DNA from: Amoebophrya sp. A120
Taxonomy: Eukaryota > Protista > Dinoflagellata
NCBI GenBank assembly: GCA_905178155.1
Contig: CAJINV010000006.1
Location: 3,346,437-3,410,436 of the forward strand
DNA length: 64,000 bases
Reading direction: 5' to 3'
Below, piece by piece: positions 3,001 through 64,000 of this stretch (position 1 is the stretch's first letter; each line of letters starts with the position of its first letter). The position numbers and the translations under genes were made by a program. A model generated the notes under the pieces. It worked only from the letters and a program-made list of their open reading frames with translations. It did not search any database and was not told the origin of the DNA.

Positions 3001-6000
3001 GGAGATTCTGCTGTTGATGTTGACCCGAAGATGAAGCTACAACCGGCTTCGGCAGCGGACGGAAACAAGGTACTTACCAATGTAGCATCACGTTTGTATC
3101 TATTAGATGGAGCCTCTGTCATCTAGCAGGTCGTGTTCGATGTCTTCTACACGATTTTCGTTTTTTTTTCTTTCAGCAAAATGCATGACAAATTCATCAC
3201 TTATTGTTCATTCAAACAGGATCATCTTGCAAGACCGGCCGACAAGAATCCGCTGGATTTGGACGTCGACATGAAGCCGGCAACTGACATTCTGGAGTCG
3301 CAGCTCAGTCTAGGAACAAACGGTGCGTCGAAAGAACAAACTGAACCCGCCCCGGTAGCTGCACCCCTGTCCGCGGCTCAACACACGGATAATATAGGAG
3401 AAAGTAGCGTCCTCGCGCCAGTCTCCGCTCCAGTAGTAGAAGATGTCGAGATGGCTGACGTCGGTTCGAAAGAGGAGGGCCTGTATGCATTGCGAACGTA
3501 TCGTACTAGTATAAATTAATCGCAATACAAAGTTTTCCAGAAAGGAAAATGAAATTTGTAATGCTGATTTCGCTAAGAAACAAGATTTGTCATGCATGAT
3601 TGCAATTAGTACGAGTGCGATACTTTTGCAATTCATAGCCTGGCACGAGGAACAACATCTTCTTCATCTGCCAGCAATCCCACAGGGGCAGCAGCAAGAA
3701 CTTCTATTCCTGCTATGCCCCCACCAGCATCCGAAATAACTACACTTACCAAAGAACAACCCGCACAGGGCACCAGCGCAGTACGTAAAAATCCGGTAGA
3801 AGTAGTAGCCCAGAGTTGTCATGCAATTCTGCATGCCAAAGAAGTTTCTCTTCATGCGGAGCCATATGAGAAGCGTTTCCTGTTCATATTTTGGAATTTG
3901 TCATGCTAGAATCAGCATGCTTTGCTAGATCTGTGATGCTTCTGAACTAGCTAAACAGGATCACACTACGAGGACAAACCTGTCATGCCAAACAACCAAA
4001 GCTAGCTGATTTGTCTAGCAGATTTCCCATCTTGACTCTGGTGTGGGGACGTTTTTACACAGGATATGTCATTCTGGAGTCGCAGCTCACTCTAGGTGGA
4101 ACAAACGGTGCATCGAAAGAACAAACTGAACCCGCCCCGGTAGCTGCTGCACCACTCGGGGCCCAACACACGGATAATTTAGGAGAAAGCACTAGCGTCC
4201 TCGCGCCAGTTATCTCCGCTCCAATAGTAGAAGATGTCGAGATGGCTGACGTCGACTCAAAAATCAAAGATGAAGTACTAGGCCCAACATCTTCGTCATC
4301 TGCCAGCAATCCCACAGGGGCAGCAGCAACTTCTATTCCTGCTATGCCCCCGCCACCAGCATCCGAAATAACTACACTTACCAAAGAACCCGCACAGGGC
4401 ACCGGCGCAGTACGTAAAAATCCGGTAGAAGTAGCGAGCAAATCCACTTCGTCGACCACTGGGGCAGTTGCGGGGAATGCTTCTAATGTTGGCACTTCTG
4501 CAGCGCAAGTCCAAGTGTTGCCAGCACCTTCAACTTGTTCTGCAACACCTGCTGAAGAAGGTTTTGTTCCAGCGGGGGTTCCTACTTCTAGCGGGCAGTC
4601 TGCTGACGTTGACCCGAAGATGAAGCAATCCGCTTCGGCAGAAAACGGGAAGGTGCTTTTACCATTCTAGCATGATCACCTTGGTATCTATCAAGAACTT
4701 CTGTAGTCTTCCTAGCAGCACGTCGTATTCGTCTACACTCACAATTATTTCCGTTTTTGTTTCTTTGAGGAAAATGCATAGACAGTTATTGCTTATTCAA
4801 ACAGGATCATGTTGCAAGACCGGCCGAAAAGAATCCGCTGGATTTGGACGTTGACATGAAGCCGGCTACTGAAGACGTTCTGGAGTTGCAGCTCATTCTA
4901 GGTGGAACAAACGGTGCATCGAAAGAACAAACTGAAGCCGCCCCGGTAGCGGCACCACTCGTGGCTCAACACACGGGAAATACAGGAGAAAGTAGCGTTC
5001 TCGCGCCAGTCTCCGCTCCAGTAGTAGAAGATGTCGAGATGGCTGACGCCGGTGCGAAAGAGGATGGCCAGGTACGAGGGGAGACACCTTCGGCATCTGC
5101 CAGCAATCCCATAGGAGCAGCGCCAGGGGCCTCCATTCCTGCTATTCCATTTCCACCAGCATCGGAAAATAAGACACTTACCATGTTGCAACAGTCACAG
5201 GGCACGACGGCCAGCGCAGTACGTAAAAATCCGGTAGAAGTAGTAGCGTCTGCCAAGAACACCAACACGACCTTGCCGAAATTGAATCTGAACTACAAGC
5301 CACCCAGTCGTGCAGTCCCACAACGACTGACCGGACCTACTGCGCAGTTGGTGACAGACGCCGATTTACAGCAGCCAGCACGTGCTATTGATTTCTACGT
5401 CGGCGCGACAAGAACTGGAGGTAGTTCTAGTTCTAGTTCTGCTGATGTTTCCCAACAGCAACAAAAAGCGCAAGAAGTTTCTGTATCAGACCCGAGAAAA
5501 CAGCTTTCCCCACACAAGAAAGCGCAACACCCCGCAGCAGCCACAAAGCTACCGAACAAAATGCGGAATGCGATCATCAAACCGATGCAGAATGTATCAC
5601 AGGAAAAAGTGTTAACGTCACCGAAATTTGTGATGCAGCAATGCATCACTAAACGTGCCAAAATTTGTATTGCGTAGCATGCATGGAAGGCAATATTTGT
5701 ATATGCATAGCTGCCATCTGTGAAAACCGTGGACGTTAACACTTTTCTGCTTGATAGAATCTTTTGGAAAAATTTTGGAACGAGAAAAAGCAGTGCTACG
5801 AAAGGAACAAAGAATGGAGCCCGCAACTCTCCGTTACTCTGTATCGCAAGAAAATAAAACTGTTTCAGTGTAAACTTGTGATGCATAGGATGCAAGAACA
5901 CAGACGCATTTGTCTTGCTACACATGCAAGATCGCTTGGGTTTATTTTCAACGTGTTTTCCCTTGGGAAGTACGCAGGGCAAGTTTGTTTTGTCATCATG

Positions 6001-6266
6001 TGTAAACGAACTTGTAATGCAAAACTTACAAAATCCTTTACAGTGAGACACTTTTTGCTGCCGATACTCTGATCAAGCTGCTGAATAACGGGGAGAAGTT
6101 CAACGTCTTCGGTTGCGATCTCGATCCGGAGGCGGATAAATTGAAGAAAATTGCGCAGAGCCTGTTATCCCAGCTGGATGGGAAGGCTGTAGAGGCACTC
6201 TTGGAGAGTTCTTCTTCGGAAAGTGCTGGCGGGGGAACTAACTCCAGATCGGGGTCGAAAGCGTAA
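1..6266 (+). CDS. Large low-complexity (Ala/Ser/Thr/Glu-rich) hypothetical protein with internal tandem modules; 5'-partial, multi-exon
   Basis: ORFs 242-1585, 1582-3126, 3133-3519, 4011-4670, 4844-5677 and 5764-6072 join in frame after removing TIR elements at 14-162, 1529-1666, 3484-3637, 5595-5756 and 5842-6066 (each plus one 5-nt repeat) and GT-AG introns 3070-3219 and 4653-4804. The protein ends ...TNSRSGSKA-TAA at 6266. The junction at ~3810-4062 is unresolved. Confidence 0.7.
14..162. mobile_element. Introner, family A (TIR TATnnnnTGCAAAAGTATCG)
   Basis: TATGAGCTGCAAAATTATCG...CGATACTTTTGCAATTCATA, flanked by AAACA/AAACA. Confidence 0.85.
1529..1666. mobile_element. Introner, family A
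   Basis: TACCCTGTGCAAAGGTATCGTACTCGTA...TACGAGTACGATACTTTTGCACAGCATA with direct repeat GCGTG/GCGTG. Removal fuses the 447-aa and 514-aa ORFs (TGGV-KKPT). Confidence 0.9.
2854..5245 (+). repeat. Intragenic tandem duplications (module X twice, module Y three times)
   Basis: Module X (ASKSTSSTTGAVAGNA...DPKMK plus a GT-AG intron plus DH.ARPA) starts at ~2854 and ~4434. Module Y (LESQL...VEDVEMAD...VRKNPVEV) starts at ~3289, ~4071 and ~4878. Confidence 0.9.
3484..3637. mobile_element. Introner, family A, present in only one of three repeat modules
   Basis: Direct repeat GCCTG/GCCTG; the sister modules lack the insert. Confidence 0.9.
5595..5756. mobile_element. Introner, family D (TIR ...AAAAAGTGTTAACGT)
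   Basis: TATCACAGGAAAAAGTGTTAACGT...ACGTTAACACTTTTCTGCTTGATA with repeat GAATG/GAATC. A reverse-complement relative lies at 53686-53854. Confidence 0.9.
5842..6066. mobile_element. Introner (TATCGCAAGAAAA family)
   Basis: Repeat CTCTG/CTCTG; related ends at 42145-42357 and 59765-59973 (the latter inverted). Confidence 0.8.
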
Positions 6267-7117
6267 CTACCGGCGGGTGCGAGAAACATGATGTGGGGCA
6301 TAAGGTTTGATCTACTCTTGTGAAGCAGATTTATTGTGAAAAACTACGATGATAGACATAGATGATGTTGCCACGGGATTATATTTTGTGTAGTGCTGTA
6401 CTCATCACATTGAAGAGAGACTCGTCTCGTCTTGACTAAATTAGCGCAGCTTCTTGATCTTATTAAAAAAATTTTTTTTACGAAACACTCGGATCCTAGG
6501 TTTGAATTTTCTAACGAACGCGAGCTGATCATAGTGATACTCTTAGTCTACCATCTACTTCTATCTACAAAAATGAAATTATCTTACATAGTACGACTGA
6601 ACCCGCTGGAGCATCGAAAGATGTCTCCGTCGCATTTGTCGTTCGCACTTCATTTCTAGTTGGCGGTCAGAGGGTGTGCAAATCAACAATTCAGTAGAAT
6701 TTTTATCAAGCACGCATTGCTATTGTTAGGGCACGACGACCTTTTTGAGCAGATCCCATCTCAACAAGAAGTCACTTCAGCTTCCTCTGACAAGTCTTCC
6801 GAAAAAACGTAAGACACCGATGGTGATGGAGAACAAGAACCCGAGACGATCCGTATGATGGCGGATTCATCGGGACGAAGATGGTGAATTTCTATTGCTT
6901 ATTACTGAGAAAATCTCCGTGACACTTATAGTAAAATTTTCATTCAAATCAAGAAAAATACAAGAGGACAACTGGATAAGGGCCTCCCCGCTCCTGCTAA
7001 CTATGACAAAAAGCACAAGCTGCAACTTCACTCTCGGCGAAGTACAAGCACTACATGAGCTTGAGCAGCTATCTCAGCTTGTGACTTTAGATGATTCAGC
7101 TGCAAAGGCAGCGCGTG

Positions 7118-8672
7118 TGTGTGGTGTTCAGTGCTTGGCCGGTACGCCGATGGATTTTGTCGGGCTCGGGTAGTGTGAAAGAAATAACTGCGAGCGAGGA
7201 CAGCAAGCCCCGACACGAAGGCGCCAGGCGGCCGGGAGCGGGCCGGCTTGGCGCACCTTTAACGCCGGCCGGGGTGCGCCTGGCTGACAGCTACGAAAGC
7301 GCCACCCTTGCGCGCCCTGGGCCGACCCGGAAAACGAAGGAGATTGGCGCCCATTCGCATGGGCGGGCATTGACTGGATTGCGTGCAAGCCGGTGCAGCA
7401 CTTGCGCACTCCGGGCGGTTAATGTGTGCGCGGCCCCGCGAAGCCCATGGCAGCCAGCGGCTGGCTTGATGCGCCGGCCGAGCGGGCCCCTACGTACCGC
7501 CGAGGCGAGCTCCTACGTAGCGCCAAGGCGGCCGCCTTCTGGCCCGATACATACATAGGGCGGGCGTGGAGTTAGCAGGCGCGCGGGCGCGAGACCCCTC
7601 CTGGGCGCGTTGTCACGCCGGCGCGGTTTTGCGGGGGCGGGTCTGCAAGTGCAGCCGGCCCGTGCTTGCGCGGGTGCCTTTCCGAGACCGGGCGCGCGGG
7701 AGGGTCTCCAGCTCTTCCCCCAGCTCTGTGAAGTGTTGAGGGCTTTACGGGAAGCGGGCCGGGGCCCCGAAGACTACACTGCCGCGCGCCGACGGCGCCC
7801 GCCCGCGGAGTTCTTCAAGGCAGAGCCGGCCGCATGTTTTTCGGCCGGCCGGGCTTGTTGCAGATTGGTTGCTTCGCCGAAGCGTTCGGCAACAGCTGCG
7901 CGGCGCTGATGGGCCTTCCTGCACGCCCCCCGGCCGCCCCCGCATGGTCTAGCAAGCTGGGGGCAGTGCCTCGACCGGGGGTCGCGGCGCGCGCGCGCCG
8001 CCGCCCAGAGATTGGCCCGGCCGGGCCGGCCGTGTTGTGTGTTTGTTTGCCCGGCTGGCGCGCCCCGCGCGGACCCCTTGCCTTGCGGGCGGGGCCGTCT
8101 TCCTGCCCGGAGGGGCGGCGCGTGGTTTGTTGAAGGGGTGGCCCGGTGTCTCGTCTTTCTTGGCTCGGGCGCACGGCCGGGCGCACGCGCCCCCCACCCT
8201 CTTTGGCCTGATCGGGCGCAGGTGCGTCTGGGTGGTGGGCCGGCTTCCCCCGTCGGGGGGGCAGTCAACCACCCAAAAACGCATCGCGCCGTGGGGGGCG
8301 CCGGCGGGCGGGCAGGCTTCCTTGGCTGTTGAATGTTGGCCGCGTGGTGGGGTGTGTCCGTCGGCTGCCGGGGCGCTGGCCCACTCACCCCGGTGCCCGT
8401 GGCCCCAATGCGTGGCTCCGTCTGCAGGGCAGCCGGCCAAGTATTTTTGTATGTTGTGCGGTGCCCGCCGGCGCCCCGCTTGCCCGCCCGCATAGATAAT
8501 CAATCTTGGCTCATTGTGTTAGTTGGGTATATTGTCTGTGTTGGATTGGTTTGTGCATTTCGGCCTGGGGCTGCAATGGCGTTGCATTCTCGTCAGCCTG
8601 TTGCAGTCGTGTCGGCCGACAGTCCGCTTGCCGACTGACTCACTGCCCTTGCCCTCAAACGACCGTCACACA
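7118..8672. mobile_element. GC-rich intergenic island, possibly a solo LTR or non-coding mobile element
   Basis: Abrupt switch to very high GC (core ~7200-8490). Bounded by TGTGTGGTG...CGTCACACA (TG...CA with a short inverted end). No target-site duplication and no credible ORF found. Confidence 0.3.
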
Positions 8673-9048
8673 TTACCTGTGTTGTTCCGCTTCTTTACGG
8701 TATAATGGAAAAATTGATGCACCGCTCAGACTCAGAGTCGATGTCGATGTCGAAAGCGAAAACACAGAAAAAAAATGTTGTTGCTTTTGTTATTATGAGG
8801 GAGAGGGACGGTCACAGCACTGGCAATTCATCTGTTGAAGTGGTGATTTTTTTGCACCAGTACTACCTAGCGCCGGCATTGAGGGTTTACGTTTTGAGAA
8901 GGTGCTCGTCCCTTGATGTGTGGACCCCTTTTGTTTCCGCCCTGGTAGTTTAATTATGTCATGTTATTCTTTAGTTAATGTTCTTGGCCCAGCTGAAGAC
9001 TGGGCTTCGCTCACCTCCTTCTATCCCCTCTGCCATCAAAGCAGCTGA

Positions 9049-11401
9049 ATGCTCGGCTGCAAGCGACGGCGAACGAACAGCAGCAGCCCCCTACAAGATC
9101 AGGTCGATGCAGGAAGCAATAGAGGCTCCTCCGGCGACAGTGCGCTGAATAACAGGAGCTGCACAAGTGTAGTTGATCACTCTCAAGAAAGAAGAACCAA
9201 AAGGGCTCCGGGCGAAAACGATAAGGGAGGCAAGAGCATCAAGACCATTTACCGGAACAAGAAAGCCCAGAGCTGTAGTTGTGATCCGGCTGATGGTTCG
9301 ATTGGTAATTTGGAGAAAAAGCCAGCAGGAGCAGGAGGTCAGCACCCACACCGAAAAGCACCATCGAAGGGAGAGCCAGTACCAGCTCCAGAGTCCCCGG
9401 AAGCAGGAGATATCAACGACCAAAAGAAGAACATCAATAACAGCGGCCGCCCTCGCTCAAAAAGCACAGGCGCAGCTGCAGCGAGCAGCAAGAAATCGGC
9501 GGCGCACAAGTCCTCTGCTGGTGACAAACAAGAGGAAGCAAATAAAACGTGTTCGCCTGTGAGAGCAGGTCGCCGACAATCGTCTTCAAAAATGGAGCCC
9601 CATTCCAGTCCGCAGCAGCTCACCCGCCCCCTTGTGCAGCCCATCCCCTCCCCCGTGAGCTCTAACGCGGCGCCGAAACCACAGGACAATTCCCAACTTC
9701 CTCCCGCGGGGCTGAGTTCCAATTATGCGAACAAAAACGAATCCAAGTTGCTTAGCAGGCCAAAAACCGTGGATCAGCTGTTGATAGAGAAGCTGTTAGC
9801 TGAAGACAGTCAGGAACAGCAGCAAAACCTAAATCTCCGGGCGATCAACGAAGACGAGGAACTGCAGCAAATGCTGGAATATCCAGTGCAAAAGTATCGC
9901 ATTCGTAGCAAGTAATTGCAGTTGTGCATCGCAAATCTCTTTGTCAAGGTCAATCAGCATTACAAATTTGATTTGTAATGCTGGGCGAATTTGTAATGCA
10001 ATTTGAATTTTTACTAGTACGCTACTTTTGCCTTGCATATTGAGCTGTCGAAAAAAGAATTCTACGACCGGGAGTTCCGGATGGGCGCCTCACACGACAT
10101 CTTGGTTGCGCGGGTTTTGTCCTACGGGTTATGCAATACAAATTTCCCGCCGTACATGTACAATACGCATGACAAACTTCGCTAATTTTGAGTGTCAAAC
10201 TTGTCATGCAGATTAAGATTGAAGGCAAGTTTTGTCATGCAGAGACAGCATTTGATGTACGTGCACAGGAAATTTACTGTGGATGCGGGCTGAAGGAGAG
10301 ACACGTGAAGGGGGACGGATCGTGCCAGTTCCGGGCTATGGATTGCAAAAGCATCGTAATAGTATGAATTGCATTACAAATTTCCTCAGCATTAGACATG
10401 GAATCTTCTGTAATGCAGATTTACCACGATAAAAAAGATTTGTAATGCGTAGCTGCAATTAGAAGTACGAGCGCGACACTTTTGCACAGGATCCGGGCCC
10501 TGTCAGACCAACTTTACGGCACCGAGGAGCACCACCAGAATGTGCGGAGGAAGGTGATTATCAAATGCAAAAGTGTCTGGGTCTGGAACAGTGAAAGATT
10601 TGCCATGCAGGTTTTCCATGACCCATGAGGTCTGTAATGCAGGGTCTAGCGTCACAGATTTTGAGAGGGCTTCCTGATGCCTGTTCCGCATGAGAAATGC
10701 CCTCTCGCCGTGGCAAAAACTGGACTCCTTTTGCTGGTCATGCATTACGAGATTTTTTTCGAATCCGAAGACAGCATCACAAGTTTCAACCTTCCAGACC
10801 CAGACATTTCTACATTTGATAGTGATAGAAAAACTGGAGCAGGAAGCAGACCACTACAAAAATTTTGTGCTGTCCAAAACGGAAATTGAGTCAAAGGAAC
10901 AGGCTGACGAAGCTTTCAACCTGTATCTGGTCTCCATGTCCGAAGAGTCCACTTGGGGTGCTATCGTACGTGCATGCATTGCCAGCGCCATGAGCATTAG
11001 TTTGTAGTGCGCGAGGACGTCGTAGAAGTCGTTAGTACAACGGGCAGAAATGAGATCAAGATGAAAGTTGCTTGTTTTACTTTACGATTTTTACGTGCTA
11101 GTGTCCGCTTTCGCATTACAAACTGCGTGCCTGCTTCGTGAAGCTGGCAATGTTAAATCGCATAACAGATCACGTGACGCTCCAAGCGGCTGCAGATGTT
11201 TACAACTGTGAGATAAAGCTGATCACGAGCTACGATGACGATGCGATCTTGTCCATTTTGCCCCTGCAGAATAAGAACGCTTCTTCCGCATTTGGTGCAG
11301 CTACGAGGAAAAAAAGCGGAGCGAATAGAGCCCTTTGGCTCGCGTTTTGGGCCGAGGTTCACTACAATTCGGTAGAGGAAGACTACGTGGCGGTTGCTTA
11401 G
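9049..11401 (+). CDS. OTU-domain deubiquitinase (cysteine protease) with a low-complexity N-terminus
   Basis: Removing elements 9880-10039, 10130-10285, 10337-10493, 10559-10821 and 10962-11164 gives ...VKGDGSCQFRALSDQLYGTEEHHQNVRRKVIEKL...STWGDHVTLQAAADVY...LWLAFWAEVHYNSV, containing the OTU Cys-loop and His-loop motifs. Confidence 0.92.
10559..10821. mobile_element. Introner, family B (TIR TATnnnnTGCAAAnATGTCTGGGTCTGGAA)
   Basis: Repeat GTGAT/GTGAT. Same orientation as 24207, 29513 and 61833; inverted relative to 42691, 43648 and 54258. Confidence 0.9.
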
Positions 11402-12011
11402 ATAATTGCAGAGCAGAAGTAGAATGAAAAATTGTACAACATACCCAATGAATACAAAGTCGGGGACGGCCATAACTGCCTTTGACAGCTAGAGCACTAC
11501 ATGAAATCGTGAAGATGAACAATTGTACAAATGAACCCCGGCCGCCACTGGCAGCGTCAGCGAGCAGATGCGGCGGGCGCTTTTGCGGGCACAGCCAGCG
11601 CTGCTCAGTGAAGATTAGAAGTAAATTTATCGTGTTTGTTGTTTGACAGAGCATAATATCTCCGCTCTCCTACTGCTGCTGTCGGTACTTCTGCACGCCG
11701 ATCACGCCTTCTCAATCTTGCGGGAGATGATGTGCATGGAAGGTGCTGACGCGGCAGAGACGACTTTACCTGTTGTAGGACCCAACAGCGGTCGTTCATT
11801 TTGGTTGTTTAGCGGGAAAGAGCCAAACCTTTTGTTTCGAAAGTAAATTTTTCTACGAGGATCAATTTCAGCGATCATCACGTACTAGAAGTCGTCGATA
11901 CTACGTTAGGTCGTCTCACTTACCGAGTTCTTACGAGGCCCTTCGGTCTAGGTACCACAGCAATGTGGGCTTAAATTTTCCTGCTGTCGAAAGAAAGCCA
12001 AGCGAAATCAT

Positions 12012-13305
12012 ATGGACACCAGCAACATCATGTCCGCGCATGGTCTGTCCCTTTGCTGTCGTTCGCTTGTCAGGCTCAGGGGCGGTCTGACGCTTGTCCT
12101 CTCGGCGATATTACCCTGGCGGGCCATCATCACAGCGACTCCGGCTACCGTTCGTGCGAATGAAGAGGCACCGCTTGTCGACACTAGCAGGAGCATCTAC
12201 GAGGAAAAGGGTTTCTTCACGAATTACGATGCCGATCCACTTTGGGTTCGTCTGGACACTGCGCTGCGCTGGTTTCCCGATTTGCTTGACACAAGGCTGC
12301 ACAAGAACTCCTCGCCGCGACGGGTGATTCTGAAGCAGGTGCTCTACTACACACAGGACCAGGGGGCGCTGGCGCGGCTGAAGAATAACTACAGCAAAGA
12401 ACCTCAAATAGGAGTACTAGAAGACCACAGCGGCCACACTGACACTGCTTCCTTATCTATGCACGAGAAGTGGAACAAAAACTTCTCTCCTTATCTCCAC
12501 CCGTTTCGGATCTATTTGGAGAAAAAGGACTCCGCGAGCGAACTGCATGTCGACACGGACAAGCCCTGGATCGGAAAACCGTATTTGGAAAAATCGGATT
12601 TGAAAACCATATGGATGTGTCAGGTTTGAAATCGTCAAAGTTGAATAAGTATAAGTAGCTTGTCATGCATAAAACGGTTACCAGTTAGACCTACAGTTTG
12701 TAGTCGGCGCATGGCAAATTTTCCCGGTCCTGGAAGCGAGTATGTCATGCGGTTTAGGGCAAAAGAGCTGCCTTCTGTCATGCTAGTCAGCAGTCCAACT
12801 TTTGATCCTTACCAGGACTATAATCTGTCTCCCGTGTGTCCTCTGCAATAGAGTCACTTTTTGCATTGCATTTTATGCATGGCAAATCATTTCAACTTTG
12901 ACGATTTCAATCCTGACACCCCCATAAACCAAGCCGACCAAATATTTGAACGCTTTGTCGGAAGACAAATCCGAGGAGCCTGTTGCCTACGTGCAGTTTT
13001 CCAGCGGGAAGGAAGTGGTCGAAATGCTGAAAAAAGCTTGTCACGCGCAGAAAACTGCAAAAAATAAAGAAGACAAAGCAGTGGCAACACCTCCCTCGGA
13101 AGACCGCCACAACACTGAAACTACAGATGACGAGTCTGCTGGTGGGGGTGTTTTCTCTTCCCTTTGGTCTTCGGTAGTCGGGGCGGTTGCTACAAGCGGA
13201 GGAGCTGCTGTGGAACAATCCGCAACAGAAATCAAAACTTCTTCTTCGTCCTCGATCACGACCCCTCGTCCAGTTGTAGACCTCACCAAGCAAAAAACCG
13301 CACTG
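12012..13305 (+). CDS. 5' part of the methyltransferase-domain gene, truncated by the gap
   Basis: Copy of 20073-21366, including a family C element at 12610-12926. Confidence 0.65.
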
Positions 13306-13590
13306 NNNNNNNNNNNNNNNNNNNNNNNNNNNNNNNNNNNNNNNNNNNNNNNNNNNNNNNNNNNNNNNNNNNNNNNNNNNNNNNNNNNNNNNNNNNNNNN
13401 NNNNNNNNNNNNNNNNNNNNNNNNNNNNNNNNNNNNNNNNNNNNNNNNNNNNNNNNNNNNNNNNNNNNNNNNNNNNNNNNNNNNNNNNNNNNNNNNNNNN
13501 NNNNNNNNNNNNNNNNNNNNNNNNNNNNNNNNNNNNNNNNNNNNNNNNNNNNNNNNNNNNNNNNNNNNNNNNNNNNNNNNNNNNNNNNNN
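13306..13590. other. Assembly gap (285 N)
   Basis: Run of n between the two duplicate copies. Confidence 0.99.
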
Positions 13591-14326
13591 CCCGCAGCAG
13601 CCACAAAGCTACCGAACAAAATGCGGAATGCGATCATCAAACCGATGCAGAATGTATCACAGGAAAAAGTGTTAACGTCACCGAAATTTGTGATGCAGCA
13701 ATGCATCACTAAACGTGCCAAAATTTGTATTGCGTAGCATGCATGGAAGGCAATATTTGTATATGCATAGCTGCCATCTGTGAAAACCGTGGACGTTAAC
13801 ACTTTTCTGCTTGATAGAATCTTTTGGAAAAATTTTGGAACGAGAAAAAGCAGTGCTACGAAAGGAACAAAGAATGGAGCCCGCAACTCTCCGTTACTCT
13901 GTATCGCAAGAAAATAAAACTGTTTCAGTGTAAACTTGTGATGCATAGGATGCAAGAACACAGACGCATTTGTCTTGCTACACATGCAAGATCGCTTGGG
14001 TTTATTTTCAACGTGTTTTCCCTTGGGAAGTACGCAGGGCAAGTTTGTTTTGTCATCATGTGTAAACGAACTTGTAATGCAAAACTTACAAAATCCTTTA
14101 CAGTGAGACACTTTTTGCTGCCGATACTCTGATCAAGCTGCTGAATAACGGGGAGAAGTTCAACGTCTTCGGTTGCGATCTCGATCCGGAGGCGGATAAA
14201 TTGAAGAAAATTGCGCAGAGCCTGTTATCCCAGCTGGATGGGAAGGCTGTAGAGGCACTCTTGGAGAGTTCTTCTTCGGAAAGTGCTGGCGGGGGAACTA
14301 ACTCCAGATCGGGGTCGAAAGCGTAA
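13591..14326 (+). pseudogene. 3' fragment of gene 1 (duplicate or assembly copy)
   Basis: Matches 5531-6266, with stop TAA at 14326. Confidence 0.6.
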
Positions 14327-15176
14327 CTACCGGCGGGTGCGAGAAACATGATGTGGGGCATAAGGTTTGATCTACTCTTGTGAAGCAGATTTATTGTGAA
14401 AAACTACGATGATAGACATAGATGATGTTGCCACGGGATTATATTTTGTGTAGTGCTGTACTCATCACATTGAAGAGAGACTCGTCTCGTCTTGACTAAA
14501 TTAGCGCAGCTTCTTGATCTTATTAAAAAAATTTTTTTACGAAACACTCGGATCCTAGGTTTGAATTTTCTAACGAACGCGAGCTGATCATAGTGATACT
14601 CTTAGTCTACCATCTACTTCTATCTACAAAAATGAAATTATCTTACATAGTACGACTGAACCCGCTGGAGCATCGAAAGATGTCTCCGTCGCATTTGTCG
14701 TTCGCACTTCATTTCTAGTTGGCGGTCAGAGGGTGTGCAAATCAACAATTCAGTAGAATTTTTATCAAGCACGCATTGCTATTGTTAGGGCACGACGACC
14801 TTTTTGAGCAGATCCCATCTCAACAAGAAGTCACTTCAGCTTCCTCTGACAAGTCTTCCGAAAAAACGTAAGACACCGATGGTGATGGAGAACAAGAACC
14901 CGAGACGATCCGTATGATGGCGGATTCATCGGGACGAAGATGGTGAATTTCTATTGCTTATTACTGAGAAAATCTCCGTGACACTTATAGTAAAATTTTC
15001 ATTCAAATCAAGAAAAATACAAGAGGACAACTGGATAAGGGCCTCCCCGCTCCTGCTAACTATGACAAAAAGCACAAGCTGCAACTTCACTCTCGGCGAA
15101 GTACAAGCACTACATGAGCTTGAGCAGCTATCTCAGCTTGTGACTTTAGATGATTCAGCTGCAAAGGCAGCGCGTG

Positions 15177-16730
15177 TGTGTGGTGTTCAGTGCTTGGCCG
15201 GTACGCCGATGGATTTTGTCGGGCTCGGGTAGTGTGAAAGAAATAACTGCGAGCGAGGACAGCAAGCCCCGACACGAAGGCGCCAGGCGGCCGGGAGCGG
15301 GCCGGCTTGGCGCACCTTTAACGCCGGCCGGGGTGCGCCTGGCTGACAGCTACGAAAGCGCCACCCTTGCGCGCCCTGGGCCGACCCGGAAAACGAAGGA
15401 GATTGGCGCCCATTCGCATGGGCGGGCATTGACTGGATTGCGTGCAAGCCGGTGCAGCACTTGCGCACTCCGGGCGGTTAATGTGTGCGCGGCCCCGCGA
15501 AGCCCATAGCAGCCAGCGGCTGGCTTGATGCGCCGGCCGAGCGGGCCCCTACGTACCGCCGAGGCGAGCTCCTACGTAGCGCCAAGGCGGCCGCCTTCTG
15601 GCCCGATACATACATAGGGCGGGCGTGGAGTTAGCAGGCGCGCGGGCGCGAGACCCCTCCTGGGCGCGTTGTCACGCCGGCGCGGTTTTGCGGGGGCGGG
15701 TCTGCAAGTGCAGCCGGCCCGTGCTTGCGCGGGTGCCTTTCCGAGACCGGGCGCGCGGGAGGGTCTCCAGCTCTTCCCCCAGCTCTGTGAAGTGTTGAGG
15801 GCTTTACGGGAAGCGGGCCGGGGCCCCGAAGACTACACTGCCGCGCGCCGACGGCGCCCGCCCGCGGAGTTCTTCAAGGCAGAGCCGGCCGCATGTTTTT
15901 CGGCCGGCCGGGCTTGTTGCAGATTGGTTGCTTCGCCGAAGCGTTCGGCAACAGCTGCGCGGCGCTGATGGGCCTCCTGCACGCCCCCCGGCCGCCCCCG
16001 CATGGTCTAGCAAGCTGGGGGCAGTGCCTCGACCGGGGGTCGCGGCGCGCGCGCGCCGCCGCCCAGAGATTGGCCCGGCCGGGCCGGCCGTGTTGTGTGT
16101 TTGTTTGCCCGGCTGGCGCGCCCCGCGCGGACCCCTTGCCTTGCGGGCGGGGCCGTCTTCCTGCCCGGAGGGGCGGCGCGTGGTTTGTTGAAGGGGTGGC
16201 CCGGTGTCTCGTCTTTCTTGGCTCGGGCGCACGGCCGGGCGCACGCGCCCCCCACCCTCTTTGGCCTGATCGGGCGCAGGTGCGTCTGGGTGGTGGGCCG
16301 GCTTCCCCCGTCGGGGGGGCAGTCAACCACCCAAAAACGCATCGCGCCGTGGGGGGCGCCGGCGGGCGGGCAGGCTTCCTTGGCTGTTGAATGTTGGCCG
16401 CGTGGTGGGGTGTGTCCGTCGGTTGCCGGGGCGCTGGCCCACTCACCCCGGTGCCCGTGGCCCCAATGCGTGGCTCCGTCTGCAGGGCAGCCGGCCAAGT
16501 ATTTTTGTATGTTGTGCGGTGCCCGCCGGCGCCCCGCTTGCCCGCCCGCATAGATAATCAATCTTGGCTCATTGTGTTAGTTGGGTATATTGTCTGTGTT
16601 GGATTGGTTTGTGCATTTCGGCCTGGGGCTGCAATGGCGTTGCATTCTCGTCAGCCTGTTGCAGTCGTGTCGGCCGACAGTCCGCTTGCCGACTGACTCA
16701 CTGCCCTTGCCCTCAAACGACCGTCACACA
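15177..16730. mobile_element. Second copy of the GC-rich island (inside the duplication)
   Basis: Same sequence as 7118-8672. Confidence 0.3.
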
Positions 16731-17106
16731 TTACCTGTGTTGTTCCGCTTCTTTACGGTATAATGGAAAAATTGATGCACCGCTCAGACTCAGAGTCGAT
16801 GTCGATGTCGAAAGCGAAAACACAGAAAAAAAATGTTGTTGCTTTTGTTATTATGAGGGAGAGGGACGGTCACAGCACTGGTAATTCATCTGTTGAAGTG
16901 GTGATTTTTTTGCACCAGTACTACCTAGCGCCGGCATTGAGGGTTTACGTTTTGAGAAGGTGCTCGTCCCTTGATGTGTGGACCCCTTTTGTTTCCGCCC
17001 TGGTAGTTTAATTATGTCATGTTATTCTTTAGTTAATGTTCTTGGCCCAGCTGAAGACTGGGCTTCGCTCACCTCCTTCTATCCCCTCTGCCATCAAAGC
17101 AGCTGA

Positions 17107-32158: not shown

Positions 32159-32290
32159 ATGTTGCTGTCTTCCCGCTTTTCCGTGAAGATCTTTTGTCTG
32201 CTATCCTGGGGCGCCAGTGAATTTACGGCTGCGACGGAGATCGCTTTCAAGCTATTGAGCGGGGACACCCTGCTAACCATTGACAGTGCT
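32159..32290 (+). pseudogene. Decayed 5' fragment of the same secreted family
   Basis: SRFSVKIFCLLSWGASEFTAATEIAFKLLSGDTLLTIDS matches the N-terminus of 33139. A weaker relic (KFKLLSGTLRTI) lies at ~31864, and upstream sequence is also repeated. Confidence 0.7.
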
Positions 32291-50191: not shown

Positions 50192-52328
50192 GGTCACTTT
50201 GACCCACTTTGAAGTGGGTCGAAACACGACCTGACGACCCACTTTCAAGTGGGCCTGAAAGTGGGTCATTTTGACCCACTTTTGTGGGGGGGCGGAAAGT
50301 GGGTCACTTTGAGGTGGGCCCGAAAGTGTGTCACTTTGACCCACTTTGAAGTGGGTCAAAACACGACCTGACGACCCACATTCAAGTGGGTCTGGAAGTG
50401 GGTCACTTTGAACCACTTTTGTGAGGACCGGAAAGTGGGTCACTTTGAACCACTTTTCTGGGGGGGCGGAAAGTGGGTCACTTTGAGGTGGGCCCGAAAG
50501 TGGGCCACTTTGACCCACTTTGAAGTGGGTCGAAACACGACCTGACGACCCACATTCAAGTGGGTCTGAAAGTGGGTCACTTTGATCCACTTTTGTGGGG
50601 ACCGGAAAGTGGGTCACTTTGACCCACTTTGAAGTGGGTCAAAACACGACCTGACGACCCACTTTCAGGTGGGTCGGAAAGTGGGTCACTTTGACCCACT
50701 TTTGTGGGGGGGCGGAAAGTGGGTCACTTTGAGGTGGGCCCGAAAGTGGGCCACTTTGACCCACTTTGAAGTGGGTCGAAACACGACCTGACGACCCACA
50801 TTCAAGTGGGTCTGAAAGTGGGTCACTTTGATCCACTTTTGTGGGGACCGGAAAGTGGGTCACTTTGACCCACTTTGAAGTGGGTCAAAACACGACCTGA
50901 CGACCCACTTTCAGGTGGGTCGGAAAGTGGGTCACTTTGACCCACTTTTGTGGGGGGGCGGAAAGTGGGTCACTTTGAGGTGGGCCCGAAAGTGGGCCAC
51001 TTTGACCCACTTTGAAGTGGGTCGAAACACGACCTGACGACCCACATTCAAGTGGGTCTGAAAGTGGGTCACTTTGATCCACTTTTGTGGGGACCGGAAA
51101 GTGGGTCACTTTGACCCACTTTGAAGTGGGTCAAAACACGACCTGACGACCCACTTTCAGGTGGGTCGGAAAGTGGGTCACTTTGACCCACTTTTGTGGG
51201 GGGGCGGAAAGTGGGTCACTTTGAGGTGGGCCCGAAAGTGGGCCACTTTGACCCACTTTGAAGTGGGTCGAAACACGACCTGACGACCCACATTCAAGTG
51301 GGTCTGAAAGTGGGTCACTTTGATCCACTTTTGTGGGGACCGGAAAGTGGGTCACTTTGACCCACTTTGAAGTGGGTCAAAACACGACCTGACGACCCAC
51401 TTTCAGGTGGGTCGGAAAGTGGGTCACTTTGACCCACTTTTGTGGGGGGGCGGAAAGTGGGTCACTTTGAGGTGGGCCCGAAAGTGGGCCACTTTGACCC
51501 ACTTTGAAGTGGGTCGAAACACGACCTGACGACCCACATTCAAGTGGGTCTGAAAGTGGGTCACTTTGATCCACTTTTGTGGGGACCGGAAAGTGGGTCA
51601 CTTTGACCCACTTTGAAGTGGGTCAAAACACGACCTGACGACCCACTTTCAGGTGGGTCGGAAAGTGGGTCACTTTGACCCACTTTTGTGGGGGGGCGGA
51701 AAGTGGGTCACTTTGAGGTGGGCCCGAAAGTGGGCCACTTTGACCCACTTTGAAGTGGGTCGAAACACGACCTGACGACCCACATTCAAGTGGGTCTGAA
51801 AGTGGGTCACTTTGATCCACTTTTGTGGGGACCGGAAAGTGGGTCACTTTGACCCACTTTGAAGTGGGTCAAAACACGACCTGACGACCCACTTTCAGGT
51901 GGGTCGGAAAGTGGGTCACTTTGACCCACTTTTGTGGGGGGGCGGAAAGTGGGTCACTTTGAGGTGGGCCCGAAAGTGGGCCACTTTGACCCACTTCGAA
52001 GTGGGTCGAAACACGACCTGACGACCCACATTCAAGTGGGTCTGAAAGTGGGTCACTTTGACCCACTTTTGTGGGGACCGGAAAGTGGGTCACTTTGACC
52101 CACTTTGAAGTGGGTCAAAACACGACCTGACGACCCACTTTCAAGTGGGTCTGAAAGTGGGTCACTTTGACCCACTTTTGTGGGGAGGCGGAAAGTGGGT
52201 CACTTTGAGGCGGGCCTGAAAGTGGGCCACTTTGGCCCACTTTGAAGTGGGTCGAAACACGACCTGACGACCCACATTCAAGTGGGTCTGAAAGTACTTC
52301 ACTTTGACCCACTTTTGTGGGGGCCGGA
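50192..52328. repeat. Tandem satellite with a 246-bp higher-order unit (~8-9 copies) built of AAAGTGGGTCA / TGACCCACTTT inverted motifs
   Basis: Repeat-derived ORFs recur exactly every 246 bp (50639, 50885, 51131, 51377, 51623, 51869, 52115). Core motif GAAAGTGGGTCACTTTGACCCACTTT. Confidence 0.95.
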
Positions 52329-53087
52329 AATGATTTGTGGTCCTGATTTCAGGGCCGGGCTGACCCTAATTCGTCCTGACCCTGAATTCAGCGTCGGAGT
52401 GAGCCTGGTCTCAACCATCAACAAAACACAAACCAACAATTTTTTTTTGGCATAATTATTGCCACACTTACAATGAGTCGGTTGCTGAGCTATCCTTTTT
52501 CCCTGGGAGCGAATTGGTGAGTCGGCATGGCACGAGGAATTCTCACGGTCGCAATAAAATTTTAGAAAGGAGCGACAAGAAAAAGAATGAGCAGTTGAAG
52601 ATCGGTATGATATTCAGGAGTTCGGTCGTGCGGTGTGCTACAACTGGTAAGTAGCACTTCAGAAGTTGTACTCCCATCGAAAAGAGATGAGAGGACGGCA
52701 CGCAACAGCACATAATTACCGAGTGAGTTTTTTTCACATGAAAATTATTGAGAGCATATGATATTACCCCGACTTCTGTGTTTGGTGTTTTTTATCCAGT
52801 ACCCCGGCACATTTGTCTACTACTCACCAAGAGCCACTAAAGCTAGTAGACCCCATCAACAACATATTTATAGTAAAAACGAGTTTTAGCACCAGATTTA
52901 CTTTACTTGCCGTACTGTACAAGTTGAGGGCGAGTCTCGAGACCGACGTGCTGAAGCATTCAGCAGTTCATTTTCGTTCAGTTCAACATTTATTTATAAC
53001 CGAGGAACCCCTGCAGCGGGACAACACGACAGAGCTGCTGGAGATATTTAGTATTATTTGTCAAACCCATCATCATCTACCGTCAAT

Positions 53088-57991
<4,904 letters not shown>

Positions 57992-59425
57992 GGAAGGGGA
58001 TTGATGCGGGAAGTTTTGGTGCAATTTTTATCCGTGGGAGAAGCAGCTCACCATGCACAGATGAAGGAGGGAGGGGCCGCTAGTCCCAGAGGACTTCTCT
58101 CGGATACCAATTCGTATCTTCTCACGTGACACTGGATCTGAGTCGTAAATTTGGTAAGTATAGCAACAACTATTTTCCATCTTGTAATCACACGAAGGAC
58201 TGTTATGACTTTCACCAGAAGAAGATATTCAACAAGTTTCAAGTATATCACACCTATCAAAATCTACTAAACTCAAGCAGGCGGAAGACAACTTTTTCAC
58301 GCTGCTAGAATCGGAATCAGAAACAGAACACCCTCGAATTTTTGTTGAAAAGCGTCTCAGACGGGCAGTCGATCCGGAGGTCGTGGTACCCAGAATCATT
58401 CAGTAGGCTCGTCTCGTCCGATGTCTCGTTAGTCAACGAGCACGATGAGGGGCTGAAGCGTACTTTTATCAAAAGACCAAGGAAGATGTCTGGACGCTCG
58501 CGCGCCGCCCTCAGGCGTTCTGCACATCAATCAACATTTTTTTTTTTTTCATCCGTAGCAACGACTGAAACCCGTCGAACGACCACCTCCCCGCCCATGA
58601 TTAAGTATTCCTATTAACTAGCTTCTTTCACAGCACTAGTTCCTACCTGATGTAAGGCTAAGATCAGGACCCAAGAAGTCTACAACCGACAGTATTTCAC
58701 GCTCACCCACCCAGCAATACAGAATCCCTGTGTCAAATTGCACAAGAAAAATGAGTGGTGTCACGACGCATTACAACATTTTGTAAAATTCATCGTGATC
58801 GTTACCAAGACTATTTCTACTCCTTCTACACATGTATCGTAAAGAATGAAAGGCTAACTATGCTCGTCAAGCCGTGACGGCGACGCTTATGTACAGAGCA
58901 TGAGTAGAATAAAACAACTTCGCGCCAGTGGTCCTCCTCCTGATGACATCATTTTTGAGAACCAGGGTCGTCCCGGCTCACCTGGAAGGGTGGTGCACTG
59001 GCGTCGAAAGAACAACTTTCTGTGGAATGGTGAACTGCCCCGGCGGCGAAGTAGACACAGCATTTCGTTGTAGAGAAGATCGAGAATAAATGGGAATAAC
59101 ACTACACCGCAGAAGAAAAAAACCACAACTATCGTTCGAGAGAAAGCAGTTGCTTTCTCCACCAAGTGGTTCGTCTGTGTGTTCACGTAAAGTGTCGTGT
59201 CCTGTTTCATCCGTAATTTTACGTGACCGTCATACCTCCTCGTCTTCTATTACTGTTCTTGTTTGATGTACTTAGTACCATTGAGCCGAGGCGATTAAGG
59301 GGACTACACCAGCACCGCCCATCCTCGTCTGCCGCAGCAGCTTTTTGCTGCAACAAGAACCCGAGCCAAAACAACTCTAGTATCTGTTGAGGAGAAGCCT
59401 CCAATAGAACACGGACAGCATCAAG

Positions 59426-62400
59426 ATGGCTCGCCTGGTACCCGTTTCTTCTTTTCCGTTGCGGGCCGCGCTCGTGCTCTGCCTGCCCGCCGTGACCCTG
59501 CAGTTTTCCGGGTCGCTATTTGCCTCCGCCATCCGGGTGCACAGTGACGACCAAATCAACCATGTTGCTACTCTAGCATCTTCACCTGCAGCGCTGCTCG
59601 TCACAAAGTCTTCAAAGCAAGACCCCACAGCAGCTCCAGCGGCTCCAGCACCCAAACCCAGCGGCTGGGGCGTCCACCACAGCACCACATCGCATTTGAA
59701 GAAACCGGGGAAGGGCTACAGCTACGGCTCGCCACTGTACGGCCAGAACATGCACTCCGTTTCCTATCCCACGAAAAAACTGTTTCACTGTGATGATTTT
59801 GCAATATCTGCATCACAAGTCTGCTACACATGGCGCGGAGAACTTGCCATGCGCGCTTCCCGAGGGAAAACACGCTTCAAAACCCAATGTCTTGCAGGTG
59901 TAGCAAGACAAACAGCTTGGTGCTTTCTTGTCTGCATCACAAGTTCACAGTGAAGCAGTTTTTTCTTGCGATATTTCCCACAACTCCTACACGACCCAGT
60001 TCCCGCCGGCTCCGCCATCGACCGCCATGCAATGTGTGATCACCCTGACCTTATGCATTGCAAATATGTCTGGGTCTGGCTCTGGAAAGTTGTCATGCTA
60101 ATGTCCAAAGGATAGGCGAACTGTGTTGCTGAGCCGCGCATGACAAGTTTCTGAGCGGCTATGCCTAGCGCTAACCGCATGACAAATAGCCCTTTTACAT
60201 GACAAACAAATGCCGTTGTAGCGCGACAAGCATGACAGACTTCTGTGTATTGCTATTGCCGGCCGAGCATGACAATCTTCTATTCTACTTCCAGACCCAG
60301 AAGTCGTTCTCTTCCCCGTGCTGTACCAAGGTCTTGTTTCCAGACAAAACACCCGACATTTTTGCAGTTCATAGACCTTTCAGTTCTTCATGATCCTCTC
60401 TGCGGTCGCGATTTTGAAGACGATCAAAGAACTTTCCGCCAACAACAAACCCTCCACTCTGCTCGTCGCGTTGCAAGTGTCCCGCGGGACCTTGACCTTC
60501 GTCCCCATGCTGTGCGTGTTTTTCCTGGCGATCCGCATGCGGGCAGTGCAGTTGGCGGGCGGGGATAACGACCAATTCGATTTGCCGCCAAACTGGATGA
60601 AGACGATGATGAAGATCGCAACATCGGCTGTTGTGATCCAGGGGGTTGTCGTGCTGCTTTGCCCGTTTTTGTTGAACAAAATGCCGGAAGTCGACAGCGA
60701 CGGAAACATTGTACCGCCGAGTTCCACTGCGGCGGCTTTATGGTGCTGGAAAAAAGCTTAGCAGAAGCGGGCTGATAGATGCTTTGATACACAAGGGTCG
60801 TTACTTACAACACTGAATACGTCTGCAGGAGTGTCCTGGACCACGGCTACCACGACAGTGACAGTGTTAAGAACTACCAGGTTGTCATGCGTCTTCGTGC
60901 ACATGTTGAAAAAGTTGCTGATTCTCACTTGGAATAGGCCGCGCATGTGCAGCTATTCCTGTGCGAAAGGCAGTACTCATCACAAATCAATATCAAACAT
61001 CAAGCAGAGGCAGCTTCACTTGGTTCTTTATTTCTCTTGTATACATCGGCGGAACGCTCCAGAGAAGCTGGGGATCTACGGTATAAAAATGACTGACACT
61101 ACTTTTGACCACGATGACAAAATATTTCTTCGTACATGCTGATCATTATTGCTTCACAAAATACCATCCTATTCCTAGTTGTGGCTGCGCATGACAAACT
61201 TTCAAACTCAACCTTCTATCTAATTAAGGTTCTCACCATAATCCGGTCCTTCTCCTTCCTCGGCCTGTGGACGTCGATTTATCCTGCTGAAACAAGATGA
61301 AGTTCGGGTCAATACGAAATTTGTATTGCAGAGAACAGTAATATGAAAAGCTAACGTATCTATGCCATACTAGCATGACAAATTCAACCCTGACCCGAAA
61401 TCAAAACTTTTCGCAAGTGCATTCTCTTCCAGCACTGATTACCGGCATGTGGTTCATGAAGCCTCCGGTCGAAATTTGGGGCCCCCGGGCGGACATGCAG
61501 AACGAAGATTTTCCCTGGCCGGCAACCTCCTATCAAATGCAAAATGAAGATTGCGAGACTTGTCATGCTTGTCTGGCATGACCAAAAAAGTTTGTGATGC
61601 GTGTCCAAGAAGAGACCCTTTTGCCTGTCATGCAAAAACGCAGTTTGTCATGCGAAAAACGCAACACAAAGAAGCGCAGATATTTCTCATGCTTGGCTGT
61701 GCATTACAGAGCATTCACTATTCCCAACGCAGCATTACAAGTTTCCAGACCCAGACATTTTTACATTTGATACTTCTGTGAAAGCCACGATGGACATGAC
61801 GTCCCTGTTTTTCGTCGTCTACTTCGCCCTCGTATCAACTGTAAAAATGTCTGGGTCTGGAAGATTGCCAGGTTTGTCATGCACATTCTGCATGACTCCT
61901 CAAGTCTGTGATGCATGCCCTAGCATCACAGATTTTTAGAGGGCTTCCTGAAGCCCATTCCGCATGACAAATGCCCTTTCCGTGCTGCAAAATTTGGACT
62001 CTCTTTGCTGCTCATGCAATACAGATTTTTTTAGAGTCCGAAATCAGCATGACAAGTTGAATTCTTCCAGACCCAGACATTTTTACAGTTGATACGTCGC
62101 GATGCTCCGGGAGTTCAACAGCCCCAAATTCGCCCACACGATTGCGTACGCATTGCAAAAGTATCGTACTAGTTCTAGTAGTGATTGCATAACAAATTTG
62201 CTTAGCATTTTTACGAACAAAACTTGTAATGCTGTTTTACCTTAGGAACGAGATTTGTCATGCATAACAGCAATTACAACTACGAGTGCGATACTTTTGC
62301 AATGCATATCACCCTGCTCCAAACCGTGACACCAACTTTGAACCTCGCCCCGATGTTCTGCATCTTGTTTCTCGGTGCCAGGATGCGGGCCTTGCAAATG

Positions 62401-64000
62401 GACCCCATTGACGGGCACGTGCAAAACTGGTATCGACTGCAAATATGTCTGGGTCTGGAACAAGGATGCAACTTGTGATGCGCATTTTGGATTAGACAAA
62501 AATAATCAGTCATGCAGGGACAGCAAAAGTAGCTTACAACTCATCATCAAACTCTGGAATTTCTCATGCGATCTAGGCACTGGGAAACCTCAATCACCAA
62601 ACCTGTGATGCTATTGCTGGCATGCCAGAGCTTCTGGGTCATGCAAAATCAGTATGACAAAGTCCGCAGTCATCCAGACTCAGACATATTTGCAATGCAG
62701 AACTGGGCGAAGGTCGCGATGATCTTGACCACAACCGGTATGGAAGTGCAAATACGTCTGGGTCTGGAAACTTGTCATGATGAATTGGCGAGACTGAAAT
62801 ACATTCCAATGCAGCCAAGCATGAGAAGTTTGCAGAGCCCGTCCTCTTGCGCAGTCCGCATGAGAAACAGGGCTTTTGTATTACAAAAAGGGGGACTCTC
62901 TTGCTAGTCATGCAATACAGGTTTTACAGGAGTGTAGGACTAGCATTACAAGTTCCATATTTCCGGACCCAGAGATTTGCAATCCATAACCGGTATGGAA
63001 GTGCAGATTCTGGCGATGTTCGTCTGCGGCCTGTGTCTGAACGGCGAGGTGAGGGCGGGGAACTGTGAAGGGGATGTGTATCCTCAGCAAAAACGTCCCC
63101 AGCACAAAGTTGTAATGCAAATGCGCAATGACAGGAACATTTGTAATGCGCATCTCCACGAGACGACGAGGCATTTTTCATCGTGATTTGACAATTTTGT
63201 AATGCTGTAAACAGAATGAGAAATTGGCTTTCTCGTGCGGCTTGCTTAGCTTTCTCGTGCGGCTTGCCTTGCTAAGCACCACTACACTACAGACGGAAAC
63301 TTATCATGCACAACTCCCAAAGCTTGGCGGTTTGTGTTGCAGATTTACCAACTTGGCTATGGGTTGGGGTCGTTTTTGCTCCGGATAATGTGAGGTTTAA
63401 AGTCAGCAACCCCTGGGTCATGGTGGTGATGCAGGTAATGGTGATGTTGTCACGAATTCATCATGGTTTTTTGTCATGCGTGAAACTGCATGAGAAGGAC
63501 TTTCTGTCATGCATAAAACCACTTTACAAATATTTGTTCATTCTGCCATTCACAACATATTCAGATCATCCGTTGGTCCACGATCGTCTGCATCTATACC
63601 GGCGCATTGATGGTTTTAGTTTCCGTCTGCGTGCTCGAGCACCCGAAAGACCCGGCAAAGACGCCGCCAGTCAGCTCGGCAATGAAGTGTGTGATGATCT
63701 TGACGGTACTGTACCTCATTGTCTACTTCGGCCTGTTCCTGATGACCTCGCTCCGCACCTGCTTGGGCAGTCAGTTTGGTTCGTCCGTCCTCCGTGCGTT
63801 CGACACGGCTCGCGGCACGGTATTCTTCGCGCCGATGCTGTATCCTGCGTAAAAACGTTCCCACCCCAGAGTTGTCATGCAGAATTACAATCACTGAAAA
63901 ACTTGTAATGCGCATTTCCATGAGAGGCATTTTCAATCGTGTTATGCAATTTGTGATGCTGTCAAGAGAATACCAGGATGGATTTGTGATGCGGTTGTCC
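59426..64000 (+). CDS. Multi-pass membrane protein with a repeated (A/V)PML...RMRA.Q domain; 3'-partial
   Basis: Signal-like N-terminus. Repeat units TLTFVPMLCVFFLAIRMRAVQL (~60490), TLNLAPMFCILFLGARMRALQMDP (~62335) and TVFFAPML (~63817), each preceded by a PP.S.AM.CV-like helix. Elements at 59765-59973, 60052-60373, 61531-61772, 61833-62094, 62147-62308, 62431-62701, 62739-62988, 63079-63387 and 63841 onward; GT-AG intron 63435-63564. The 60739-61420 stretch is less certain. Confidence 0.8.
63079..63387. mobile_element. Introner, family I (TATCC...AAAAACGnCCC)
   Basis: Repeat ATGTG/ATGTG; a second member starts at 63841 and runs off the window. Confidence 0.88.

Follow-up and report, generated by a model that had tools for sequence, protein, structure and literature searches.

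A spaced, strand-symmetric motif shared by introners and GT-AG introns in a 64-kb stretch of the Amoebophrya sp. A120 genome

Introners of the window and the motif they carry

We analysed a stretch of 64,000 nt (the window) from contig CAJINV010000006.1 of the dinoflagellate Amoebophrya sp. A120. Its genes all lie on the plus strand, and their coding sequences (CDSs) are interrupted by short TAY...RTA elements with 5-bp target-site duplications (TSDs). An earlier note on this DNA had drawn attention to a decamer, TTTGT(C/A/G)ATGC, said to mark introns of nearly every class in both orientations, including GT-AG introns that lack terminal inverted repeats (TIRs). This held: the motif is a real, strong and apparently undescribed feature of introns, its 8-mer core TGT[CAG]ATGC occurring in 71 of 77 introns and its exact decamer in 56. 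Eight of the nine TIR-less GT-AG introns carry it, so that it is not confined to elements with intact ends.

The intron set comprises 66 TIR elements (14..63387; 138-329 nt, without assigned strand, all within CDSs), two partial elements and the nine TIR-less GT-AG introns; an N run with a near-exact duplicate (13307-21364) and a tandem repeat (50190-52350) were masked in all counts. Some introns were added from motif matches outside the first list; each has TIRs of its own, and their inclusion could slightly inflate the intron counts. Introns left of 52400 were called from structure and reading frame. RNA-type contigs supplied at least 15 joints between 56182 and 62312, 12 of them at TIR elements and four readable as GT..AG, and removal of all annotated introns gave spliced lengths of 2633 and 1742 nt for the genes at 53088..57990 and 59425..64000, equal to those of their RNA contigs.

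The TIR elements fall into many small families besides two large ones, of about 150 and 260 nt. Their TIRs begin with TAT followed by an A run, the bordering direct repeats are identical at four to five of five positions in 49 of the 66, and the joints and matching spliced lengths reveal their removal from RNA with non-canonical ends. These carriers are known Amoebophrya A120-type introners, which have been described as spliced-out sequences with a TAT start, an AAA stretch, TIRs, direct repeats of 3-5 nt and non-canonical ends (PMC7789003, Farhat et al. 2021; this and the other papers cited are drawn on for the sections covered), in families of 150-320 nt assigned to TIR DNA elements of unknown superfamily (PMC7789003; PMC12130899, Gozashti et al. 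2025). The duplication in the window elements is clearly 5 bp, as opposed to the short direct repeats described. In the sections covered, both papers describe terminal repeats only, with no mention of a shared internal motif, of a rule for its spacing or of its occurrence in canonical introns (PMC7789003, PMC12130899). Nor was a description of the motif found in the covered text, figures excepted, of the introner literature including PMC12130899, PMC11282704 and PMC12005148. Twelve of the 14 PMC12130899 supplements did not contain the motif strings, and the matches listed for the literal motif in literature from 2019 on contained no dinoflagellate work.

The k-mer comparison proposed in the earlier note placed introns far above shuffled sequence and exons and intergenic DNA near it. 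Counting both strands, the core occurs 166 times in 14.9 kb of TIR introns (4.5 by dinucleotide shuffle), 13 times in 1.3 kb of GT-AG introns (0.4), four times in 22.6 kb of exons (1.8) and twice in 15.0 kb of intergenic DNA (1.6); 179 copies in 16.2 kb of introns versus six in 37.5 kb of exon and intergenic DNA amount to an approximately 70-fold enrichment. Decamer counts for the same four compartments were 84 (0.45), 11 (0.03), 3 (0.23) and 1 (0.14). A strong site is present in all 15 introns with a demonstrated RNA joint and missing from four of the 77. All ten GT-AG intron positions named in the note are exact decamers inside GT-AG introns, and its estimate of about eight copies in 61531-61772 agrees with nine matrix matches, eight of them strong. 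The intergenic scarcity it had noted by eye is likewise seen, with one decamer (32336..32345, minus strand) and two cores in the 15.0 kb; the motif is also near-absent from a 1.1-kb 3' untranslated region (UTR). Exonic scarcity stands as far as there are only three decamers in 22.6 kb (GCATGACAAA, minus strand within 23598..41832, read as His-Asp-Lys), but these slightly exceed chance, and while those at 23598 and 41823 lie where reported, the third begins at 24857, not 24858.

As to the form of the motif, the decamer proved to be the core of a wider, degenerate site (RYYTGTVWTGCD; judged from single-position variation). Its variable position V (C, A or G) rarely holds T (6 versus 177). The Sox-Oct composite site, which the motif may resemble, has T where the window motif avoids it.

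Spacing, end distance and conservation of the sites

The loose spacing of 20-40 nt suggested in the earlier note gave way to a much narrower rule. We counted 48 same-direction pairs at 30-33 bp, with 8.8 expected and a maximum of 22 in 2000 permutations; the peak lies at 31-33, and only one same-direction pair in the window falls at 22-29 bp. This spacing is not only a matter of family inheritance, since a pair at 30-34 occurs in 14 of the 41 introns that belong to none of the ten large families (3.7 expected), GT-AG introns hold such pairs too, and the spacers between sites appear, by eye, unrelated among families. Apart from a TIR-internal match, sites keep clear of the outer ~27 nt. In most families they lie 30-45 nt inside the ends and point inward, with end-distance peaks at 31-32 and 39-42 nt. 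Three and four turns of B-DNA correspond to 31.5 and 42 bp, and further spacing or distance peaks at 20 and 53 also fit whole turns.

The TIR-less GT-AG introns, all on the plus strand, follow the same geometry. Five of them belong to a dihydrolipoamide dehydrogenase-like gene with 17 introns (53088..57990, plus strand; 490-aa open frame with a Pyr_redox_2 match). Three of these were recognized from sequence: 53479..53603 holds two sense sites 33 apart, the first of them 30 nt from the 5' end; 55071..55199 holds an antisense pair at 55115 and 55146 (31 apart); and in 55815..56049 a perfect site lies 42 nt inside the 5' end. The other two have an RNA joint, namely 56482..56603, with a sense pair at 56509 and 56541 (32 apart), and 57022..57163, with one sense and two antisense sites, the latter 37 apart. 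A second gene, encoding hydrophobic segments (59425..64000, plus strand; at least 13 introns), contributes 61081..61228 (RNA joint), with a perfect antisense site 31 nt from its 3' end, and 63435..63564 (from sequence), in which two sense sites are 33 apart and begin 36 nt inside the 5' end. The intron at 3070..3219, called from the reading frame, has a single site at 3183, perfect and antisense, which lies 28 nt inside its 3' end; in its paralogue, the putative intron 4653..4804, the site is destroyed.

Taken together, eight of the nine carry a site that points inward and lies 25-50 nt from an end (3.7 expected, P 0.0008; P 0.007 for 20-55 nt); a narrower range, used in a first comparison of end distances, had been chosen after the data were seen. 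Four of six same-direction pairs in GT-AG introns are spaced at 31-33 (0.4 expected, P 0.0002), and 11 of 13 cores are full decamers, as compared to 84 of 166 in TIR elements (P 0.02). Sites run in one direction only in six of the nine; three have antisense copies only, all perfect sites and one with 31 spacing. The ends of these introns score for TIRs at the level of a shuffled null, and matches to family profiles are essentially confined to the surroundings of the sites. With their sites being mostly full decamers, mobility is a poor explanation for them: something preserves or rebuilds sites in TIR-less GT-AG introns.

The GT-AG introns of the window lack a GTRAGT consensus at their 5' ends (five of nine start with GTAY) and are A-rich at their 3' ends, which agrees with U1 having been reported absent. 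Intergenic GTRAGT strings, considered as hidden textbook introns, were rejected as such; ten lie on each strand.

Within families, constraint centres on the motif. Across ten families (173 of 240 elements), mismatch to consensus was 6.7% at fixed motif positions, 9.9% in TIRs and 23.7% at other interior positions, which makes the fixed ones 3.5-fold better conserved than the remainder. The V position mismatches at a background-like 25.6%; changes among A, C and G are free (209 versus 149), and changes to T are depleted (19 versus 74 expected). Both directions are present in 48 of the 66 TIR elements, and in the larger set they are equally conserved (sense 6.4% versus antisense 7.1%, P 0.40).

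A metagenome-contig scan for the spaced pair returned at least 126 loci, at least 65 of them from JACKZZ01 and of the same families. Among the matches listed, the remaining 61 had no BLAST match to window elements, six of seven inspected being tandem repeats, and no more distant relative with the motif appeared; a viral scan returned 29 loci. RNA contigs that match window exons exactly differ by 0-4% from JACKZZ01 exons and skip the same introns, which identifies JACKZZ01 as a sister strain. In a sample of 34 of its loci with long flanks (206 kb, overlaps removed), the sequence more than 400 nt from any seed pair holds 548 sites, with 86 pairs at 30-33 bp and three at 21-29, and the strain has no sense excess (303:287).

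GT-AG introns of the sister strain are mixed. One that is skipped in RNA (L064:4569-4742) carries a 33-bp pair. A motif-blind screen, which left out element-like stretches, gave 12 noisy candidates, five of which were judged GT-AG introns by open spliced frames and are thus candidates from reading frame; one of them (L025:3347-3494) holds a 32-bp pair, and four have no site (L006:509-697, L014:1456-1623, L023:76-239 and L051:8835-8884). Given these four and the lost site of 4653-4804, the motif is not universal in GT-AG introns. A universal form of the intron-definition code that the earlier note had entertained is therefore not borne out, as motif-free GT-AG introns appear to exist, and the site is not required by all GT-AG introns. 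In L064:1809-1995, a core of the 150-nt family lies inside GT...AG ends (E 1e-14) with RNA pieces flanking it, an example of how an element can come to look like a canonical intron.

Readings of the motif

A degenerate, strand-blind site with fixed pair spacing points to a protein that reads duplex DNA, and on sequence grounds the motif is probably a site for such a protein. The earlier note's suggestion of a transposase subterminal site would fit this pattern, and the site likely originated as the subterminal site of the protein mobilising the introners. We lean, less firmly, towards the fuller account, in which the motif is the paired, end-anchored docking site of one sequence-specific double-stranded-DNA-binding protein, with a subterminal origin. 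A dimer or oligomer would bind two sites three helical turns apart and would sit three to four turns inward of the element end; all TAY...RTA families would need the site, and sequence-unrelated families would come to share it for that reason. Many TIR-less GT-AG introns would keep perfect sites since the protein does something useful there, and the chances that this is help with splicing seem to us, from the sequences, about evenly balanced.

Known systems offer partial likenesses. Subterminal repeats of the miniature inverted-repeat transposable element (MITE) Emigrant, to which the Lemi1 transposase is expected to bind cooperatively, are likewise short motifs repeated at fixed subterminal positions in both directions (PMC1636448); the window motif differs in being common to dozens of unrelated families, in its 31-33 bp pairs and in its retention in TIR-less GT-AG introns. 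IS3EU/GingerRoot DNA transposons share the TA..TA termini, but usually have a 6-bp TSD as opposed to 5 bp here (PMC10045372), and no IS3-like DDE transposase was found among 58 open reading frames (ORFs) scanned. Euglenid and Fritillaria introns are similarly transposon-derived, with non-canonical ends and terminal pairing, and the sections covered describe no internal, strand-symmetric, spaced motif for them (PMC11282704).

Several observations weigh against the docking-site account. No protein binding the motif was found; no transposase has been reported in A120, in the sections covered (PMC7789003), and no transposase family emerged from the 58 ORFs scanned in ~270 kb of sequence. The site matrix was trained on the window introns, and the GT-AG sample is nine introns, seven of them from two genes, one of the nine (4653-4804) being without a site; to these come the four site-free sister-strain candidates. 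In the 150-nt family the sites face outward, and whole turns do not account for spacing or distance peaks at 18 and 37-39. Sense copies outnumber antisense ones in the window (144:104, P 0.013), an excess absent from the sister strain, and have fewer mismatches (6.5% versus 9.7%). Site density correlates with TIR quality (rho 0.37). Target duplications are identical at insertion and can serve as a clock: in 36 window copies, TSD mismatch was 10% and that at fixed motif positions 8% (P 0.38), so that post-insertion selection is not shown for family copies. The earlier note's proposal of selection after TIR loss is supported for the window's GT-AG introns, with their perfect sites, spacing and end distances.

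This neutral clock is what would be expected if the sites served transposition only and the GT-AG carriers were old or low-copy elements free of post-insertion selection, and both L064:1809-1995, as proof that elements can become GT-AG introns, and the motif-free candidates agree with such a mobility relic. Yet the GT-AG introns have no TIR signal, match families essentially around the sites alone and nonetheless hold the best-matching sites; a pair of decamers would not survive neutral decay that wipes out a TIR of 30 bp. A search of run X5 also found no near-identical copies of L064:4569-4742, a weak point, and on balance we regard a pure relic as unlikely. Going beyond the docking account in the opposite direction, a site-bound host protein might mark the intron's extent and recruit or position the splicing machinery as transcription proceeds, in place of a U1 step that these strains appear to lack, with introners spreading because they carry the mark. 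A probably transposon-derived protein on paired sites, three helical turns from one another and just within each intron end, would then define many introns on the DNA and hand the nascent RNA to the spliceosome. The perfect, spaced, end-anchored sites in TIR-less, presumably immobile GT-AG introns speak for it, as do their near-absence from the intergenic DNA and the 3' UTR and the failure to detect U1 in A25 and A120 (PMC7789003). With 19.4% of introns at shared positions and 35% canonical, roughly half of the canonical introns would be older than the A25/A120 split (PMC7789003), and some motif carriers may thus predate the elements. Against it stand the four motif-free candidates, 4653-4804, the four of 77 introns lacking a strong site, the neutral clock and the want of a known protein. 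We consider DNA-level definition conceivable but doubtful. If it were true, any element with sites would become a tolerated intron, and canonical introns would have adopted or kept the code.

Readings at the RNA level fared worse. A signal in single-stranded RNA, placed on both strands so that an element works in either insertion direction, would draw on the window's sense excess, and UGUVAUGC may resemble a PUF-type site. The excess vanishes in the larger set (303:287; 6.4% versus 7.1%), however, and all copies in three fixed GT-AG introns are perfect antisense ones, at 31 spacing in one of the three, which makes the RNA-binding intron code raised in the earlier note quite improbable. The note's zipper idea, in which copies of opposite direction base-pair within the pre-mRNA and so fold the intron, is very improbable. 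It could call on the 48 TIR elements with both directions and on predicted folds, where one third of motif bases pair with another copy; but the variable position does not covary between opposite-direction sites (405 versus 396 expected in the ten families), six of nine GT-AG introns have one direction only, the strongest spacing rule joins same-direction copies that are unable to pair, and 'not T' is no wobble rule. Removal from DNA with the sites setting the boundaries, after the fashion of ciliate internal eliminated sequences (IESs), we hold to be extremely improbable. Boundary elements of Tetrahymena IESs are reportedly read by Lia3/Ltl1. Like them, the window sites are DNA sites with an orientation and a defined distance to either segment end, with inverted copies near-equidistant from the two (PMC6547420); unlike them, they lie inside the segment, form spaced direct pairs, are reversed in the 150-nt family and belong to segments removed from RNA. 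Run X5, which has intron sequences, contains none of four exon-exon joints seen in X1, X3 and X7, a check made on contigs, which drop rare forms, and on run types that are partly guessed.

Two questions have been raised for Amoebophrya (PMC7789003): how tens of thousands of introns are removed without consensus ends or a detected U1 small nuclear RNA, and by what means the introners move when no transposase has been detected. A common site with such exact spacing could serve as bait for the protein behind either process in a DNA pull-down, and allows a genome-wide test from public data alone. If the host uses the site for splicing, intron recognition would be written for a DNA-binding protein, in a domesticated transposon signal.

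Further features of the window and the sister strain

Several individual elements, all on the plus strand, illustrate the range of carriers. Three of them have an RNA joint each: 61531..61772 has nine matrix matches with same-direction gaps of 32, 33, 20 and 31; 61833..62094 is a typical member of the 260-nt family, with a left inward pair from 41 nt and a right inward pair; and 62147..62308 typifies the 150-nt family, whose outward sites are the exception to the inward rule. In 56722..56940, also with an RNA joint, the target duplication of a TIR element provides GT-AG ends. The TIR element at 63841..64000, recognized from sequence, is cut by the window end and has two pairs, 31 and 33 apart. 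The element at 3811..4066, putatively spliced, has no 5' TIR; this was replaced at an internal duplication junction, four same-direction sites being kept, which makes it a natural experiment on whether the sites alone are enough for splicing.

All 66 TIR elements lie in CDSs, and intergenic element-like BLAST matches are confined to one spot near 32300, the compared areas being 15 kb of intergenic DNA and 22.6 kb of exon. Insertion seems targeted to exons, or else intergenic copies are lost fast.

Element copies at window 57753-57923 and sister-strain L123:479-643 are 99.4% identical at different loci; judged by this identity, the family is recently active and common to two strains. In a 2026 run (X9; window 54089-54186, 61833), about 60 raw RNA reads represent a related element with foreign flanks, which suggests that another strain or locus has an abundant transcript in which the element is retained. 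In total, 69 raw RNA reads from X9 and 11 from X10 match the window, nearly all on element pieces.

The segments 5530-13306 and 13591-21364 form a near-exact 8-kb tandem duplicate across an N gap and may be an assembly artefact. The masked 50190-52350 region is a complex tandem repeat of AAGTGGGTC-like units without the motif. Two paralogous long ORFs (26960-30335 and 33016-35538) have no Pfam match, and a protein search with the latter found no relative other than the window's own protein. Six longer elements, of up to 1.1 kb, occur in the ~270 kb of sequence. GC-rich inserts without the motif are nested in introners at L064:3967-4285, L009:1292-1850 and L016:505-1608, and the L064 introner is still skipped in RNA despite its insert (636-nt joint).

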